Source: a virus (taxonomy: Duplodnaviria > Caudoviricetes). From it: DNA of 36,124 bases. Positions 14,769-23,450 of the stretch are shown here, piece by piece. Under the pieces are notes generated by a model. That model saw only the letters and a list, made by a program, of their open reading frames with translations. It was not told the origin of the DNA and made no database searches. The stretch is taken from the IMG/VR virus record IMGVR_UViG_3300027804_000127, positions 1 to 36,124 of that record; one strand, given 5' to 3'. Positions within the stretch are counted from its first letter, which is position 1; each line of letters begins with the position of its first letter. Both the position numbers and the translations under genes were made by a program.

Positions 14769-16175
14769 TCAGACCAAGCCTCGGATCAACCTTTTGATCG
14801 GCTTACCCCAAGAAAGGTTAGACCCCCAAGAGATGGTGGCGGCATCTGAGGCAAATGTCAAGACAAATGCGTCAGCCATGTCAGGAGATTTAAGTCCCCT
14901 ACGTCTAATATCATCTTTGGATTCAATCTTTATCTTGCCGTTGGATGTAAAGGTGTACCTTACAGTCGCCAGTTCAGCAATGAAGTCTTCGTTATTGGGT
15001 ATCTTACAGTCACGTTTTTCAAGCCAAGCCTTGGTTTTATGCCAGAGTTCTGCTCTCAGGTTGAGATACGTGCCGCCCATAGCGGGGCTTTCGGACACAT
15101 TAATCCCACGACAGGGCAACTTTAGTTCTCTTAGTCGGTCAACAACACCTGCTCCTAGGCCAATAGAGTCAACCAGAATCTCTGCGGGTCTACTCTTGTG
15201 GTCACAGGCTTCGTATTGGGCGACTACTGCACCTGTTAACTGCATCAGATCCAAGTTCCTCCACCTCTCAAGAGTGTGTACAACATTAGACTGACGTTTA
15301 CATAGAACTGAAGAGTCGGAGCCAAAACGTGCCACATCGAGTCCCCAAATGATCGGAGCATCTTCATAAGCTCTTGTGTCCCTGTGTTTGGCAGACTCAA
15401 GTAGTTCCATAGGGATAATCGTGTCATCATCGCTTCTTGGAAACTCACCCAGAACCCTGATCCTGTAAGCGTTACTTTCCTCGCCATAGCGAGATTTCAT
15501 GTCTTCTACGTACTCTTTACTCACCCTAGTAGAGTCAATACAGGATACTCTCTTAGTCCACCACTCATCTTTGAGCCGATTATGGGTGTCAAAGAAGAAG
15601 CCAGAACTACGTACAGGGTTGCCCAACAGGATGGTTAAAGCGTTGTGGCCTGACATAGAACCAGCAGCAGCCTCGAATACTGCCTCTGGGACACCAGAAG
15701 CCTCATCCGCAACCAACATGACGTTCTCAGAGTGGACACCTTGGAGGGCTTCGGGCTGTTCAGCACGAGAAGTCCTTGCAGAGATGAACGCCTCGGTAGC
15801 GGAAGCCTTTAGCTCGATTCTCTCTTGTTTGACATCGAGTAGGTCCTGAATCGGTTGGGGTAGTTCTTTAACCCACCTTTTAAGCTCGGCAAACAAAGCA
15901 TCATAAAGTTGGGCAGAAGTAGGGGCAGTGACCACTACCTTTACGGGATACCTGGTCAACAAGAACCATAGCATTGCCCAAGAAGCGGTGGTTGACTTTC
16001 CCACTCCGTGACCAGAACGGATGGAGATCTTTCGCTCACCAGAGGCCACAGCGTTCAGAAAGTCTTGTTGCCAATCATCAGGCTCTACCCCTAAGACCTC
16101 TTTAACGAACAGAACAGGGTCATTCCTGTATAGGGTAATAAACTGGATAAACGGGTTATGTGCCATTGTTTTCAA
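14769..16175 (-). CDS. terL: Terminase large subunit
   Basis: Walker A RSGHGVGKS, Walker B LVADEASG, coupling motif GNP, nuclease GLDVARFGSD and SPDMADA. The start may be 16166. Confidence 0.95.
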   Translation of the reverse strand: MKTMAHNPFIQFITLYRNDPVLFVKEVLGVEPDDWQQDFLNAVASGERKISIRSGHGVGKSTTASWAMLWFLLTRYPVKVVVTAPTSAQLYDALFAELKRWVKELPQPIQDLLDVKQERIELKASATEAFISARTSRAEQPEALQGVHSENVMLVADEASGVPEAVFEAAAGSMSGHNALTILLGNPVRSSGFFFDTHNRLKDEWWTKRVSCIDSTRVSKEYVEDMKSRYGEESNAYRIRVLGEFPRSDDDTIIPMELLESAKHRDTRAYEDAPIIWGLDVARFGSDSSVLCKRQSNVVHTLERWRNLDLMQLTGAVVAQYEACDHKSRPAEILVDSIGLGAGVVDRLRELKLPCRGINVSESPAMGGTYLNLRAELWHKTKAWLEKRDCKIPNNEDFIAELATVRYTFTSNGKIKIESKDDIRRRGLKSPDMADAFVLTFASDAATISWGSNLSWGKPIKRLIRGLV

Positions 16176-16602
16176 TCACAACATCAGCCTTACCCATGTG
16201 TTTAAGAGCTTGGAGGTGTAGATCACCCAAAGAGATATTGACTTGGGTCTTAGCGGTGTCACCATAGTTCTCAGGATCAAGCTTAGAAGCCATCCACTTC
16301 CTTGTATCGACTTGGAGTCTGGCTTTGTTAACTCCACTGTTACTTGTCTCATCTGCTTGGTCAGCAATGTCTAAAGCCTCTTCTGCCAGTTTCTCAGCCT
16401 TTAGCTTCCTAGCAGCGAGTACCGCATCTCTACGCTCATCAGTATGGTTGATCCAGAAAGAAAGCATGGGCCTAGAACACTCTATGAACTCAGCCAAGCG
16501 TCCTATGGTCATTCCTTGGCTAATGTGAGCTGTTACGAATTCTATCCCTCCAAGCTCTTCTATCTTCTTCTCCAACGCTCTCCTCATAGGAAATCCTGCC
16601 AT
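16156..16602 (-). CDS. terS: Terminase small subunit (Sf6 gp1-like)
   Basis: N-terminal HTH-like region; LAEEALDIAD...VNKARLQVDTRKWMASKL.P..YGD; directly upstream of terL; AGGAG RBS. Confidence 0.85.
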   Translation of the reverse strand: MAGFPMRRALEKKIEELGGIEFVTAHISQGMTIGRLAEFIECSRPMLSFWINHTDERRDAVLAARKLKAEKLAEEALDIADQADETSNSGVNKARLQVDTRKWMASKLDPENYGDTAKTQVNISLGDLHLQALKHMGKADVVIENNGT

Positions 16603-16768
16603 ATCTTCTCCTTGATTTAATGGTTACAAATTCTAAACTATAAAAAAATTTTTTGGAGGGTTCTTTTGTGGTTGCAGGGAGGGGGTAGGGGGGTCTTAGC
16701 TTTGATTGTTGATTCGATGTGTGTAGATGTCCCCTGTCACAGCGCCCCCTCCGATTTACACAAGGGGG

Positions 16769-16856
16769 GGGTAAACCCTTACTGGTAAACCCTACCCTTA
16801 CGTACTAACCCTAATAGGGTAAACCCTTAGGTAGAAACCCTATGAGGGTAAACCCT
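16769..16856. repeat. Tandem array of (A)GGGTAAACCCT palindromic sites
   Basis: Full or near-full copies at 16769, 16784, 16816 and 16845; half-copies at 16807 and 16835. ACCCT cores at 16775, 16789, 16808, 16823, 16837 and 16852. Confidence 0.9.
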
Positions 16857-16875
16857 ACTGTCTATCCATACAGTA
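16856..16875. promoter_or_regulatory. LexA (SOS) box
   Basis: TACTGTCTATCCATACAGTA vs the consensus TACTG(TA)5CAGTA; both 5-bp arms are perfect with N10 spacing. Confidence 0.85.
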
Positions 16876-16890
16876 CCTGGTGCAAACGCA

Positions 16891-16909
16891 AATGAGAATG
16901 ATTCGCATT
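16891..16909. promoter_or_regulatory. Fur-type box
   Basis: AATGAGAATGATTCGCATT is a 9-1-9 inverted repeat with one mismatch, matching the AATGATAATNATTATCATT form of the Fur site. Confidence 0.7.
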
Positions 16910-17178
16910 CGCATCTTGTCTCATGTGTGCAAGGGGATAGCTTGTGCCAATGTGCAAAGAGCTTCTAATTAGGTTTCTAGGTCTATGCTTATCAATGCTC
17001 TTATCTTGTCTCTATCCCTTGTCTACCCTATATGCTCACCTTATCTATCCCTTATGACATTAGAAGCCCTTGTGCTGGGTTATCCCTTTCTTTTCTTTTC
17101 TTAATTGTAGCTACAAAATCAAACTGAGAACCTATGTTCTAAGGGTTTCTACTGATAGGGTTTTGGAGGGGTCAATAG

Positions 17179-17191
17179 AATCAACAACTTG
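17179..17191 (+). promoter_or_regulatory. IHF consensus site
   Basis: AATCAACAACTTG is an exact match to WATCAANNNNTTR. Confidence 0.6.
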
Positions 17192-17197
17192 CGAGAG

Positions 17198-17214
17198 TTG
17201 GCACGATTCTTTTA
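17198..17214 (+). promoter_or_regulatory. sigma54-like -24 element with degenerate -12
   Basis: TTGGCACGATTCTTTTA vs TGGCACG-N4-TTGC: the -24 and TT match, but the GC at -12 is missing. Confidence 0.4.
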
Positions 17215-17278
17215 TGCTCTATATGTGAGAGGGTAGATTTTTACTCTCTCTCTTATCAACTCTTAATAGGTGTCAACA

Positions 17279-17488
17279 ATGAGAAATTATCCAAACATTG
17301 AACGATCGGCCTTTCGTAAAGGTGAATATGTGGGCTATTGTGAGGGCAAAGTCTATCGGATAAGCAAAACTAATAGCAGCTTTGGTACATGGTTTGCCCA
17401 TGATCGGGATAACTATAACGATCAAATTTTTGCTTTTGGCCTTGAGTCTATGTCTATCAAATTGCAAGCAAAAGAGGTGACGGCATGA
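17279..17488 (+). CDS. Early hypothetical protein
   Basis: MRNYPNIERSAFRKGEYVGY...; TAGGTG RBS before the ATG at 17279; ATGA coupling to the next gene. Confidence 0.7.
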   Translation: MRNYPNIERSAFRKGEYVGYCEGKVYRISKTNSSFGTWFAHDRDNYNDQIFAFGLESMSIKLQAKEVTA

Positions 17489-17682
17489 GGTTCGCATTTA
17501 TTCCTAAAGGTCAATACAAAATCGGTCAAGTCATTAAGGTGCAAGGGCGATCAATGCGTGTTGAAAGTTACACACATACAGGCCGTAACCTTATTGCTTG
17601 CACATTAGACGGCTCTCCAAAGTTTGAGCGCATCGCTTGCATTTGCACAGATTCTCCCGCTATTGAGGGAATCACAGCATGA
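17485..17682 (+). CDS. Early hypothetical protein
   Basis: 65 aa; GAGGTG RBS; ATGA overlaps. Confidence 0.7.
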   Translation: MRFAFIPKGQYKIGQVIKVQGRSMRVESYTHTGRNLIACTLDGSPKFERIACICTDSPAIEGITA

Positions 17683-17774
17683 AAAACGATTTTTTAGACT
17701 ATCTAGCAGCCATTGTGATTGGCCTTGCGCTTTGCGTAGGGTTATTGCATTATTTTGATGTCCTGGTTAAGTAA
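17679..17774 (+). CDS. 31-aa single-TM early peptide (not in ORF track)
   Basis: MKNDFLDYLAAIVIGLALCVGLLHYFDVLVK; GAGGGA RBS; ATGA overlap. Confidence 0.65.
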   Translation: MKNDFLDYLAAIVIGLALCVGLLHYFDVLVK

Positions 17775-17797
17775 ACACATTTTTTAATAGGTGAAAT

Positions 17798-18127
17798 ATG
17801 ACAATAGAAACTGAAACACGATTGCAAGATCAAGTGGAACACATTGCACACACAATAACTGACGGCTTTGGCGATGAGGTTAACTTAGACGATGAGCCGA
17901 TGAGTGCTTTTGACTATTTAACTGACGCTTTAGACATTGAATATATTGTTAACGGCAAACGTGAATACTTAGGCGCAAGGGTTTTAGTGGCCTTTGGCGG
18001 CCCAAATATATGGGTTAACACACGTACAAAAAAAGTTGAGGGTTTTTGGTGGGGTGAATACGCCAAAGCATCTTTTGATGACGGCATTGGCCTTAATGAC
18101 GCCCTTGAAACTCTTTGGAATTGCTAA
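17798..18127 (+). CDS. Acidic early hypothetical protein
   Basis: 109 aa; TAGGTG RBS; YLGARVLVAFGGPNIWVNT motif; about 21 D/E vs 8 K/R. Confidence 0.8.
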   Translation: MTIETETRLQDQVEHIAHTITDGFGDEVNLDDEPMSAFDYLTDALDIEYIVNGKREYLGARVLVAFGGPNIWVNTRTKKVEGFWWGEYAKASFDDGIGLNDALETLWNC

Positions 18128-18128
18128 A

Positions 18129-18377
18129 ATGACTACTAGAAAACCCAAAACCCCTAAAGTACACCCAAAGATCATCAATGAGTTTATGATTTATGAGGGC
18201 ATTAATGACATAAATAGCGTTTTCGGTGCTTTAACTGTACTTGACGCATATATTCAAGGCGATAAGTTTCAAAAATACGCTGCAAGCATGGCAATAGATA
18301 GCATTCGATCTACTTTATGCGCTGGAACGGGAATAATTGAGGAATGGCTGGAAATTGAGGAGGAGGTGAAACCATGA
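18129..18377 (+). CDS. Early hypothetical protein
   Basis: 82 aa from MTTRKPKTPK; the track start at 17994 overlaps the previous gene and is unlikely. Confidence 0.65.
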   Translation: MTTRKPKTPKVHPKIINEFMIYEGINDINSVFGALTVLDAYIQGDKFQKYAASMAIDSIRSTLCAGTGIIEEWLEIEEEVKP

Positions 18378-18550
18378 AAATTGGCAATATTGTTGCTTAT
18401 GATTGCGATCCAGCATTATTGGGGGAAATAATCAAAATTTCAGTTTGTACCATAAACTGTAAAACCTTTTTGACAATCAAACCCTTTGACAATACTGATT
18501 GGGTTTATAAATACAAATGCGAAGTTTGGCTGCTGGCCGATAACCTTTAA
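18374..18550 (+). CDS. 58-aa early hypothetical protein, SH3/KOW-like start (not in ORF track)
   Basis: MKIGNIVAYDCDPALLGEIIKI...VWLLADNL; AGGAGGTG RBS; ATGA overlap. Confidence 0.7.
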   Translation: MKIGNIVAYDCDPALLGEIIKISVCTINCKTFLTIKPFDNTDWVYKYKCEVWLLADNL

Positions 18551-18566
18551 AGCATTTCCATAAATT

Positions 18567-18591
18567 CCCGCCCTAAAAAGCGGGTTTTTTT
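18567..18591 (+). terminator. Rho-independent terminator ending the early cassette
   Basis: CCCGC-cctaaaaa-GCGGG-T7. Confidence 0.8.
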
Positions 18592-18604
18592 GAAAGTGTT
18601 TGCG

Positions 18605-18816
18605 AAGTGAGTGCTTACTTTGTCAAGATCAATTTAAACGGCTTACAATGCGTTTTTATTGTTTAAGCATAGTAGCTATGCACTAAGCAAGAAAACGGCT
18701 TAAAACGGGTTTTAATGGCTTTCTAGGCACATCGTTGCAAAGTGTTTCCCGTGATGGTTTAACTTTAGGTGAAGTGAGTGCCAACTTACATGATTTTGTG
18801 AAGTGAGTACTAACTA
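18605..18816. repeat. Three 16-bp imperfect palindromes AAGTGAGT-(G/A)C..ACT(T/A)
   Basis: AAGTGAGTGCTTACTT (18605), AAGTGAGTGCCAACTT (18772), AAGTGAGTACTAACTA (18801). Confidence 0.85.
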
Positions 18817-18827
18817 ACAGCAATCTA

Positions 18828-18839
18828 AGGGTAAACCCT
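18828..18839. promoter_or_regulatory. Additional AGGGTAAACCCT site
   Basis: Exact 12-bp match to the copies at 16816 and 16845. Confidence 0.75.
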
Positions 18840-18932
18840 AAAAATGTGGGTTGTACAAAAAAGTGGCATTTACTTTTTACAAAACACGATTAACCAATTT
18901 TTGGAAACTCAAAGTTTTTGAAAGTTTGGAAA

Positions 18933-19217
18933 TTAGAAAGCATTTTCATTTTCGGGTGGATTTTCTAGCAATCTCTTAATCGTATTATTAAGTGCGTCAA
19001 TCTCATCCATTTTCTTAATATGCCACATTCTCTTTTGACCATGCCAACCTAATATCGAATTAGTATGGCAGTCTTGACATAATGCTATGCAAGTATATTG
19101 AAGACCTTGTTTGTAATGGTGGGCTTCTGATGGTCCTGATTTATCACAAACTGAACAGGGAAGCATTTTCACCCTTGCTAGGTGGAATCTTTCCTTGTTG
19201 TTCAGCTTGTTGTTCAT
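18933..19217 (-). CDS. HNH-superfamily Zn-binding protein (Ref/DUF968-like)
   Basis: LPCSVC...EAHH...IALCQDCH...GWHG. Confidence 0.7.
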   Translation of the reverse strand: MNNKLNNKERFHLARVKMLPCSVCDKSGPSEAHHYKQGLQYTCIALCQDCHTNSILGWHGQKRMWHIKKMDEIDALNNTIKRLLENPPENENAF

Positions 19218-19540
19218 TGGGTTGCCCTGATTTCCATTCTGGCTGAGTACTGGTTAGTTCTCCAGACTTCGATCCTTGCTTGGGCAGCGGTCATCAACCA
19301 CCGATACTTCTCTTCTTTTTCCACGGCAGCTCTTATGCCTTCAAGAACTTCTATGTACTCAGAATGGGCATAAGCGTAGGTTTCTTGTTTACCCAGAACT
19401 TCCGTCCCTGCCTGGCTCATCAGGTGAGCCTTCTTGGACTTTCGGAACTCCTCCAAGTACAGGCGCTCCGACTTCGCTTGGGCGTACAAGGGTGCGGTGT
19501 CGATCAAATACTGAATTGCTTTGTCGGGGCTGCTCTCCAT
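19214..19540 (-). CDS. Helical hypothetical protein
   Basis: 108 aa; GGAG RBS; YAQAKSERLYLEEFRKS...ARIEVWRT. Confidence 0.7.
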   Translation of the reverse strand: MESSPDKAIQYLIDTAPLYAQAKSERLYLEEFRKSKKAHLMSQAGTEVLGKQETYAYAHSEYIEVLEGIRAAVEKEEKYRWLMTAAQARIEVWRTNQYSARMEIRATQ

Positions 19541-19715
19541 GAATTAATCTCCAATGCTTTTCTGCTAAACGTCTTATTCCCTCGGACAAGGAACCATTCC
19601 CTGCCAAGGTCAATGCTTGCTCATGGATAGGCGCTACCCTTGCTCGGATAGTCCTACCCTCTTCACTGATCTTCTTGCGACCAGCGCCTTTTCTTGAACC
19701 GCCACGTTGTTTCAT
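19389..19715 (-). CDS. Putative ribbon-helix-helix DNA-binding protein with basic RGG.R.GAGRK arm
   Basis: RGGSRKGAGRKK then TIRARV (strand), PIHEQALTLA (helix), GNGSLSEGIRRL (helix). The C-terminal ~50 aa overlap the next gene and may be non-functional. Confidence 0.6.
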   Translation of the reverse strand: MKQRGGSRKGAGRKKISEEGRTIRARVAPIHEQALTLAGNGSLSEGIRRLAEKHWRLIHGEQPRQSNSVFDRHRTLVRPSEVGAPVLGGVPKVQEGSPDEPGRDGSSG

Positions 19716-19738
19716 GGCTTGAATTATATGCTACAAAA

Positions 19739-20260
19739 TCAATTCTTAATAGCTTTTAGTACAAACCTGATGTCATCGTCTTCTTCTTGGAAGACAGTTT
19801 TAAAGTCTGCTTTGTAGATATTCCTAAAGTCGGACATGGGTGTTCTGCCTACCTGCCTCTTGTACTCATCTTGGGATAGGAACACCAGTTGTTCAAGCTG
19901 CATGATTCTTGTATGGCTTGGATCACCATAAGCCCAGACTGAACTTCTGGAGGGACAAGTCGCAAGGAAATGACCATTTGGCTTGAGAAGTCGCCAGAAT
20001 TCTGAGAACTGAGCAAAGAATAGTTTGTAGTCACCTTGCTGCCCAAGATGTTCTAGCACTTGGTAGGCATGGATTTCATCAAACTCGTTGTCGGGGAATG
20101 GCAATGGCAGAACCATTAAGTCCCACACCACAGTAGGATTGTGGTCAACGTTGTAGTCTAAAGTGGTTAAGTTATCAAAACCAGTTGTTCTATCTGTTGC
20201 CATCTTTTTGGTGTGGTTAGATCCACAACCAATTAAAAGTTCTTTTTTTTGTTTAGTCAT
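19739..20260 (-). CDS. Class I SAM-dependent methyltransferase-fold protein (Methyltransf_11-like)
   Basis: LLIGCG, TTLD, DL..LPLPFPDNEFDEI....VLEHL, WRLLKPNG, DPSH. Confidence 0.85.
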   Translation of the reverse strand: MTKQKKELLIGCGSNHTKKMATDRTTGFDNLTTLDYNVDHNPTVVWDLMVLPLPFPDNEFDEIHAYQVLEHLGQQGDYKLFFAQFSEFWRLLKPNGHFLATCPSRSSVWAYGDPSHTRIMQLEQLVFLSQDEYKRQVGRTPMSDFRNIYKADFKTVFQEEDDDIRFVLKAIKN

Positions 20261-23142: not shown

Positions 23143-23318
23143 TTGTAAAGGTTCTCCAGGTTAATTGTTCGGTTTAGATGGAGTTCTAGCGTTCTGGCAA
23201 GCAAAGCTGTTACAGCCGCATCGAAGTCCTCTGGTTCGGTTGTATAAGCATCTGCCATTGCTTGAGAGTACCCAAGCAAGGCTTCAGCGCATCTTTTTTC
23301 AAGTATTTCAGTTTTCAT
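23139..23318 (-). CDS. 59-aa helical protein, first gene of the leftward operon (not in ORF track)
   Basis: MKTEILEKRCAEALLGYSQAMADAY...NLENLYK; ATGA coupling; a -10-like TAGGCT lies 6 nt before the ATG. Confidence 0.65.
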   Translation of the reverse strand: MKTEILEKRCAEALLGYSQAMADAYTTEPEDFDAAVTALLARTLELHLNRTINLENLYK

Positions 23319-23450
23319 AGGAGTAGCCTACCATGATAAAAAAGTTGCGTAAATTAGGGAAAACCCCTATGTAAATTTAGGAATCCATGTGGCACATTAT
23401 CGGTGTGGGCAACAAAAAACCCACATTTTAATAAACTAACAGGAGTGAAT
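23319..23450. promoter_or_regulatory. Divergent promoter region
   Basis: Strand switch; contains TAGGGAAAACCCCTA and the repeated GTAAATT(T)AGG. Confidence 0.65.

Follow-up and report, generated by a model that had tools for sequence, protein, structure and literature searches.

Among described systems, the one nearest to the locus considered here is the injection-stop region of bacteriophage T5, in which the left terminal repeat carries injection stop signal/repeat regions and clustered DnaA sites of unproven role (Davison, bioRxiv 10.1101/866236). Here, we describe an array of sites of host type in the complete 36,124-bp virus record IMGVR_UViG_3300027804_000127 (the window), which represents a phage contained in freshwater metagenomes and described as common there. 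The array, a row of repeated units (R) followed by a LexA box and a Fur box, lies at 16768-16932 beside terS, the gene for the terminase small subunit, and is likely situated at the tip of a direct terminal repeat (DTR). Like the T5 region, it would be noncoding terminal-repeat DNA that enters the cell first, has clustered sites for host proteins, and has spacers kept to helical turns. It differs in that the T5 repeat is ~10 kb with sites in a fixed order several kb from the end, whereas the repeat predicted here is ~0.5 kb with the array at its tip and with swappable modules. The T5 stop signal has ordered pairs of DnaA boxes within inverted repeats; for the loci of this clade, none were noted around the array, and the module order is variable. 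LexA, Fur, and SlmA, in turn, are not mentioned in that account of T5 (bioRxiv 866236). Two-step injection, in which pre-early proteins release a pause in DNA entry, is a T5 feature, while the present phage is known from sequence only.

Three other systems are relevant. Temperate phages with switches that use host LexA, i.e., coliphage 186 tum, GIL01, and CTXphi, have LexA boxes over a defined promoter. The likeness is the use of a host repressor rather than a phage-encoded one; here, however, the box is optional and lies 260-410 bp from start codons, and no integrase or repressor was recognized. The closest isolate with a named host based on TerL (56% identity) is the Sinorhizobium phage phiM5, which is annotated with a 357-bp DTR upstream of terL (GenBank MF074189.1). 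The two phages have in common the related TerL, a repeat just upstream of terL (predicted in the window), and a C-run/G-run hairpin at the repeat end; the phiM5 repeat is, however, mostly an open reading frame (ORF), and by eye it has no array of R, LexA, Fur, or SlmA sites. Finally, SlmA, the nucleoid occlusion protein, recognizes a 12-bp palindrome, GTRAGYRCTYAC (Tonthat, PMC3020112). Compared with the descriptions of this system (PMC3020112; Cho and Bernhardt, PMC3573117), the window likewise has an exact palindrome, at 18607, and tandem copies on a multicopy replicon, but the sites are on phage DNA, clustered, and mixed with other operators, and binding by a betaproteobacterial SlmA is a prediction. 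In the open literature (subscription papers and bioRxiv supplements lay outside the scope), we found no description of phage-borne SlmA sites, the R motif, or terminal arrays of swappable operators. New here are the terminal-repeat position, the phiM5 anchor, the enrichment of R in host genomes, a tree test of module swapping, and the link between the end array and SlmA sites.

The gene list has its two widest gaps at 16603-17278 (676 bp) and 18551-18932 (382 bp), as stated in an earlier note made from the sequence, and six small genes on the + strand lie between them; the genome is not otherwise gap-free, as that note had it, since the next gaps are 260 and 239 bp. Its observation that the gaps hold arrays of host-type sites is mostly real. 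In the first gap, six GGGTAAACCCT-type units (R, of the AGGGTAAACCCT type, at 16768, 16782, 16801, 16816, 16830, and 16845; together 16768-16856), a LexA box (16856-16875), and a Fur box (16891-16909) stand back to back beside terS. The reported number of six units is correct if two degenerate ones are counted, and the LexA box does abut the last unit with the Fur box 15 bp further on. A C-run/G-run hairpin (16742-16771), which is conserved in relatives and has a counterpart just inside the phiM5 DTR end, forms the left boundary of the array, and an element of the GTCTCA..GCGCA type (16916-16932), which recurs in the second cluster of many relatives, forms the right one. Exact GGTAAACCCT occurs five times in the window, each time in one of the two gaps (4 + 1). 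The proposed comparison with shuffled controls, run for R, gave enrichment: at ≤1 mismatch, there are 6 matches against 1.71 expected, a number reached in 0/100 shuffles. The LexA 20-mer and the Fur 19-mer are each single copy in the genome (0.025 expected per simulated genome), and the bare CTGT-N8-ACAG core, the LexA type of Beta/Gammaproteobacteria, is on its own at chance level (46/100 shuffles). The distance of ~250-420 bp to start codons given earlier also agrees with our measurements, the box centers being 264 and 413 bp (LexA) and 298 and 379 bp (Fur) away, and no consensus promoter overlaps the array in the window sequence.

The second gap was said to contain three AAGTGAGT palindromes and another AGGGTAAACCCT unit, and it does. 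The AAGTGAGT units fit the SlmA rule, with an exact GTRAGYRCTYAC at 18607-18618, a site with two mismatches at 18774-18785, and a site with one mismatch at 18803-18814; the R unit is at 18828-18839. This gap is conserved in 60 variants, with a SlmA-type site at ≤1 mismatch in 59, an exact one in 47, and the R site in 58. Our first guess, that AAGTGAGT is an ordinary TetR operator, was dropped, as no adjacent TetR pattern was found. The gap also has conserved inverted repeats at 18630-18725 and 18855-18935 and phased A/T tracts, a pattern that suggests bent DNA.

Motifs were compared with bacterial genomes of the order Burkholderiales, to which a metagenome-assembled genome (MAG) labeled Polynucleobacter belongs. 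The MAG itself is without exact AGGGTAAACCCT and was used solely as the entry to this order, which the motifs suggest as that of the phage host; a TerL search of the genome contigs for the host gave two loci only. The order-wide tallies include a genome flagged as unpublished (G028), and no claim depends on this genome alone. In 101 genomes of one family, the R pattern AGGGWWWHCCCT had 848 forward matches compared with 123 for the reversed control and was higher in 93; this is a selected sample, picked because one genome (G006) had three hits, and another genome in it (G177) shows the opposite direction. Across 151 genomes of the order, the degenerate R form gave 262 matches versus 107 for its control (hand tally), and the exact R 12-mer was modestly enriched (27/151 genomes). 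Most of the 32 host R loci inspected are intergenic, and several are immediately 5' of TATAAT; apparently, the host R sites represent an undescribed regulon. At six host loci, tandem R sites at 23-35 bp precede the TATAAT of very small genes. Based on these matches and the enrichment, the R units are putative sites of a Burkholderiales promoter-binding protein. The motif is NarL-like by resemblance only. A NarL/GerE-type response regulator encoded next to one host R site was rejected as the binder, as its matches (33-43% in 40/151 genomes) did not track the R counts.

At ≤2 mismatches, the Fur motif had 138 matches in 60/81 genomes versus 9 for the control, and the neighbors of the host Fur sites include FTR1, TonB (three), TonB-dependent receptors (two), binding proteins, and heme uptake. 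The phage Fur site is nearer the palindromic consensus than any host site found and occurs exactly in 0/101 genomes. The LexA 20-mer was found in 50/61 host genomes versus 6 with the control; recA was downstream of it in 1 of 12 host loci, and most others were unassigned. SlmA scored above the family cutoff in 45/61 genomes of the order but in 15/51 of the R-rich family. In the hosts, the SlmA-type patterns of 14 and 16 bp did not clearly exceed their reversed controls, the 14-bp pattern matching 18/201 genomes. A further module of related arrays, TATGC-N7-GCATA, which is presumably LysR-like, was below its control (14/81 genomes), leaving a host origin unsupported. As judged by motif, the array sites match those predicted for the host proteins LexA, Fur, and SlmA and for the R binder. 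The earlier attribution to host regulators is supported for LexA, Fur, and R, while the SlmA-type match of AAGTGAGT had been missed.

In viral contigs, 206 relatives of terS were found, of which the best 80 (93-100% identity) were taken; 64/81 loci of this terS-found set were complete enough for analysis and yielded 52 distinct arrays of 74-188 bp. LexA is present in 34 of these arrays, Fur in 35, SlmA-type sites in 12, and TATGC-N7-GCATA in 25, and three have neither LexA nor Fur. For the interval from the hairpin to GTCTCA, 149 loci gave 96 distinct arrays with 45 architectures, i.e., the clusters of shuffled content that the earlier note had proposed to look for in relatives; LexA is over-counted in this set, which includes loci found with the LexA pattern. 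Some relatives have up to three LexA boxes, and in nine arrays, the R/LexA block is replaced by three SlmA-type sites. The LexA CTG-N10-CAG arms are kept across 58 distinct spacer variants. On the terS/terL tree, LexA presence changes 14 times compared with 15.2 for shuffled presence, and 146/500 shuffles were as low (rough bootstrap). Gain and loss of the LexA module is, thus, independent of the terminase tree. Three further features were seen among relatives. A AGTTATGATTTATAAC module takes the place of Fur at the right end in 8/96 arrays; an extra gene of ~660-750 bp lies between terS and the conserved block in five loci and others; and in a distant relative (L085, positions 640-800), terS is on the opposite side of the hairpin and DnaA-type boxes occur in place of the array.

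The array is not confined to this terminase lineage. The R+LexA pattern matched 89 viral stretches; in the 86 examined, every terS match was 84-100% identical to that of the window, and the rest were short of the flank. The Fur pattern, with 131 loci (~310 estimated), led to a second clade (five loci), in which R, LexA, and Fur sites lie beside a G-run just before a different terS. The TerL of this clade aligns with that of the window over 61 residues only, at 30%. A lineage with a dissimilar terminase, thus, has the same array at the same place. Tandem SlmA-type sites were present in ~290 viral stretches versus 0 for a G/C-swapped control, and the 121 stretches fetched formed 50 clusters. A G/C run is located within 200 bp in 19/50 of these clusters versus 1/150 control windows, and TerL follows the G/C run in 6/14 clusters with scannable ORFs. 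Other arrangements were encountered in the same material. In five arrays of other phages, TGCACCAAA-type palindromes, which we assume to be NtrC-like, occur among SlmA-type sites. In six phage contigs of 100-120 kb, Fur and LexA sites are near DnaA-type ones, and their arrangement resembles that of the T5 repeat. A phage-like contig in a bacterial assembly (L217, positions 1-560; G064:C117) has, ahead of an early gene, 11-bp-spaced TGTCA repeats, presumably pho-box-like, accompanied by SlmA-type sites, DnaA-type boxes, and two sigma54-type sites that are complete.

The position of the array in the genome was approached by contig depth, for which exact-match contigs only were used and summed over strains in three runs (X1, X2, and X3) from two studies. 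In X1, depth was 210/217, then 415 and 489 over 16633-17164, and then 255; in X2, it was 6.4 in the flank (flank range, 5.8-6.4), then 11.3 and 10.0, and then 5.9; and in X3, it was 8.6 and 10.3, followed by 6.3 and 4.2. Contig depth is, thus, ~2-fold over about 16,650-17,190 in all three runs. In phiM5, the repeat end is 12 bp outside a GCCCCC..GGGGGGG hairpin that resembles the hairpin bounding the array. Transferred to the window, this position would place the end near 16730, ~35 bp from the first R unit; the X1 depth would allow an end up to 80 bp further left. We, therefore, predict a DTR of ~450-550 bp (16730-17190), with its left end at ~16650 to ~16735 and its right end at ~17170-17200, and the array likely at its tip. 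The early genes are on the array side and the terminase is on the other, and by analogy with T7 and P22, the array-side end would be packaged last and injected first. Contig ends of relatives are scattered over the region and mark no terminus. One contig has unrelated sequence joined directly to the C-run of the hairpin, within ~10 bp of the predicted genome end, and is possibly a chimera.

Inward from the array lie a spacer with ~11-bp periodic purine-rich repeats on the minus strand (16933-17104), which the block length in relatives indicates to be length locked; a TGTRGCYACA palindrome with flanking AAATCAA (17105-17122), a putative site of the phage's own; and a predicted early promoter region on the + strand (17142-17225) with two R-like half sites (17142-17163), an IHF-like 13-mer (17179-17191), and TGGCAC (17199-17204). 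The block from the array boundary through the promoter is 374-376 bp in 20/26 variants and 363-365 bp in 6/26, i.e., two length classes one helical turn apart, though divergent in sequence. The block flanking the array is, thus, locked in length; the array itself is not. The TTGTAGCTACAA palindrome listed in the earlier note is present, but it belongs to the longer motif, which is repeated at 19730-19742 before a small gene, and without any sign of a host site it is probably the phage's own. The note's sigma54 element is half confirmed, in that TGGCAC is conserved, while the -12 slot lacks TTGC in the window and in 17/17 promoter variants (17 of 19 rows were used, and two gene-internal rows were set aside). 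A sigma54 promoter was rejected, as TGGCAC-N5-TTGC has no match here at ≤1 mismatch and TTGC occurs in 0/17 variants. Similarly, the IHF consensus WATCAANNNNTTR matches exactly at 17179-17191, but there are five matches genome-wide versus 2.3 expected, the maximum in 40 simulated genomes was also five, and the site is replaced in some relatives. A further R-like site with one mismatch is at 23356-23367 in the divergent promoter gap 23143-23402.

Our preferred reading, which we hold tentatively and which falls somewhat short of an even chance, is that the array serves as a landing place for a coat of host proteins on the first-injected end and has a physical job rather than that of a signal. 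The row of host-type sites just inside one end of the predicted terminal repeat would be covered by host proteins as the tip of the phage DNA arrives, and the bound proteins would stop the entered end from slipping back or would mask it. This holding or masking would last until the early promoter 270 bp further in is used, from which host RNA polymerase would transcribe the mini-genes and so pull in more DNA. Any abundant tight binder would suffice, and LexA, Fur, SlmA, and R sites could replace one another for this reason. A fixed place combined with free content, free length, and dense packing fits a physical job better than a signal, and the lack of a stress input common to the relatives argues against a signal. 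In E. coli, SlmA sites are reportedly not located in promoters (PMC3020112). The second cluster, which follows the cassette terminator and always has SlmA-type sites, may have a job of its own.

Several points weigh against the coat. RecBCD reportedly displaces tightly bound proteins, even in tandem arrays, as it moves along the DNA (bioRxiv 142224), which makes plain exonuclease shielding doubtful; of the landing pad proposed earlier, the likely position of the first cluster at a genome end is retained, and nuclease shielding is weakened. A free end of ~35 bp is left beyond the array, and a terminal repeat offers free, doubled noncoding space suited to cis-acting functions of any kind. The presence of R in all arrays is in part a product of the search, which demanded R; L085 (TerL 74%) has the hairpin and no array, 31/50 SlmA-site clusters have no G/C run, and tail fiber genes follow in 2/14. 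As to depth, the terS pieces outside the proposed repeat are equally deep in X2 (10.5 and 12.2), the depth of the X1 piece 16633-16812 (415) exceeds what a left end at 16730 predicts, and all strains are summed; moreover, the source sample may be X1 itself, X2 and X3 come from a single study, and two further runs (X4 and X5) are too mixed to read. The binding, terminus, and transcript steps are drawn from sequence and contig depth.

Other functions can be envisaged for the same DNA. The SlmA-type sites might be the working part, such that replicated, SlmA-loaded sites would block FtsZ rings and division, a takeover by DNA only that is compatible with a coat in the case of the second cluster. 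The one exact and two near sites in the window, their conservation in relatives (47/60 exact; 59/60 at ≤1 mismatch), SlmA in 45/61 genomes of the order, and the ~290 viral stretches with tandem sites versus 0 in the control agree with this, as does the lethal, SlmA-dependent division block caused in E. coli by a multicopy plasmid with two sites, although the SlmA level in that experiment was ~4x native (PMC3573117). Because SlmA is found in only 15/51 genomes of the R-rich family, the 14-bp pattern does not exceed its reversed control across 201 host genomes, and the end-array SlmA sites are swapped for LexA and R sites that have no action on FtsZ, we regard this function as unlikely. About equally unlikely is a role in transcription, in which host repressors would keep leftward transcription out of terS and the late genes by blocking or insulation, or would do so for read-through at concatemer junctions, until replication outnumbers the repressors or stress releases them. 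LexA, Fur, and R are promoter-binding in hosts; R is often just 5' of TATAAT, and the phage has further R-type sites by the early promoter and within the 23143-23402 gap; protein scans recognized no repressor, integrase, or late activator; and on the minus strand, the 17105-17122 motif is followed by a -10-like hexamer. This hexamer is not conserved, however, the array is free of overlapping consensus promoters, an extra gene separates the array from terS in some relatives, and near-identical relatives lack LexA (18/52) or Fur (17/52), implying that no stress signal is common to them. The same absences, together with the incomplete sigma54 element, weaken the earlier suggestion that damage, iron, and nitrogen status are integrated into infection timing.

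They also weaken the suggestion of a decoy, in which the replicated array would soak up LexA and Fur and thereby induce the SOS and iron-uptake genes. Host sites are further from the palindromic consensus than the Fur site of the phage (0/101 genomes exact; 60/81 at ≤2 mismatches), the terminal repeat would double the dose, and there are up to three LexA boxes in some relatives; yet the window has a single site for LexA and for Fur, a third of the relatives lack the one or the other (3/52 have neither), and a decoy needs no fixed place while the place is fixed, making this function improbable. Scarcely more probable is an aid to or timer of packaging, with bound proteins covering the cut site or stalling the machinery so that terminase cuts after replication or at the right place. 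Cleavage of pac in phage P1 is reportedly under host control, the array is immediately next to the hairpin whose counterpart marks the end of the phiM5 repeat, G-runs precede terminases in other lineages, and the neighboring block is kept to whole helical turns. Against this, terminase would be made late anyway, and L085 has the hairpin without the array. Short repeats generally flank phage termini, and R and AAGTGAGT repeats could be sites for a phage protein (TerS or a small regulator) with incidental LexA and Fur matches, a view to which the lack of a named R binder lends itself. Given the host-genome enrichment of the R, LexA, and Fur motifs, the retention of the LexA arms over 58 spacer variants, and the presence of the same motifs beside dissimilar terminases, we consider it very improbable.

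Among the genes of the window, those for portal, scaffold, major head, Sf6-type TerS, TerL, an O-like replication protein, Erf, SSB, and lysis proteins were recognized. Scans of 60 proteins against PHROGs and 30 against Pfam recognized no integrase, repressor, late activator, LexA, Fur, IHF, or sigma gene, in line with the earlier remark that genes for LexA, Fur, IHF, and RpoN are not recognizable. The genes for the terminase small subunit (16156-16602; phrog_1482, Pfam Sf6_terminase) and large subunit (14769-16175; 56% identity to phiM5 TerL) are on the - strand. Between terS and the hairpin, an A/T tract (16642-16654) and a G-run (16677-16694), both conserved in relatives, are candidate packaging-signal elements (16642-16694). 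The + strand cassette consists of mini-genes for proteins of 69 amino acids (aa) (17279-17488; no family; homolog in 4/19 cassettes), 65 aa (17485-17682; no family; 3/19), 31 aa (17679-17774; hydrophobic; 15/19), 109 aa (17798-18127; acidic; 4/19; solely unnamed viral clusters in Atlas), 82 aa (18129-18377; no family; 15/19), and 58 aa (18374-18550; no family; 9/19), and it is closed by an intrinsic terminator-like hairpin (18567-18591, + strand) with equivalents in relatives. The mini-genes had no PHROG match and no meaningful Pfam match, and the one run against Atlas returned unnamed clusters only. Among relatives, cassette size varies from 1.5 to 3.4 kb, and each mini-gene of the window is in 3-15 of 19 cassettes. 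At 19530-19742, a small basic protein without a Pfam match has its start 14 bp downstream of the second GCTACAAAATCAA motif and 7 bp downstream of a TATAAT, and its gene is a candidate leaderless, self-regulating gene. The 19530-19715 protein was suspected to resemble a small protein of the second clade, but the two did not align.

The survival of phage DNA ends, the completion of their entry, and the role of host-protein sites in the T5 terminal repeat are long-standing questions. In near-identical phages that swap LexA, Fur, SlmA, and R modules at one spot, nature has performed a swap experiment, and this swapping points away from a signal and toward a physical role. It would be a larger step, and one that we think rather unlikely, that unrelated freshwater phages cap their DNA ends with borrowed host proteins by plug-and-play operators, with SlmA modules doubling as a gene-free division block, and so have a general cis-encoded device for entry and takeover. 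The element is ~170 bp and tractable on a plasmid in E. coli, and the SlmA match would allow a division block encoded purely by DNA to be tested directly. On the side of the bacteria, the R motif indicates a widespread Burkholderiales regulator that is still without a name.

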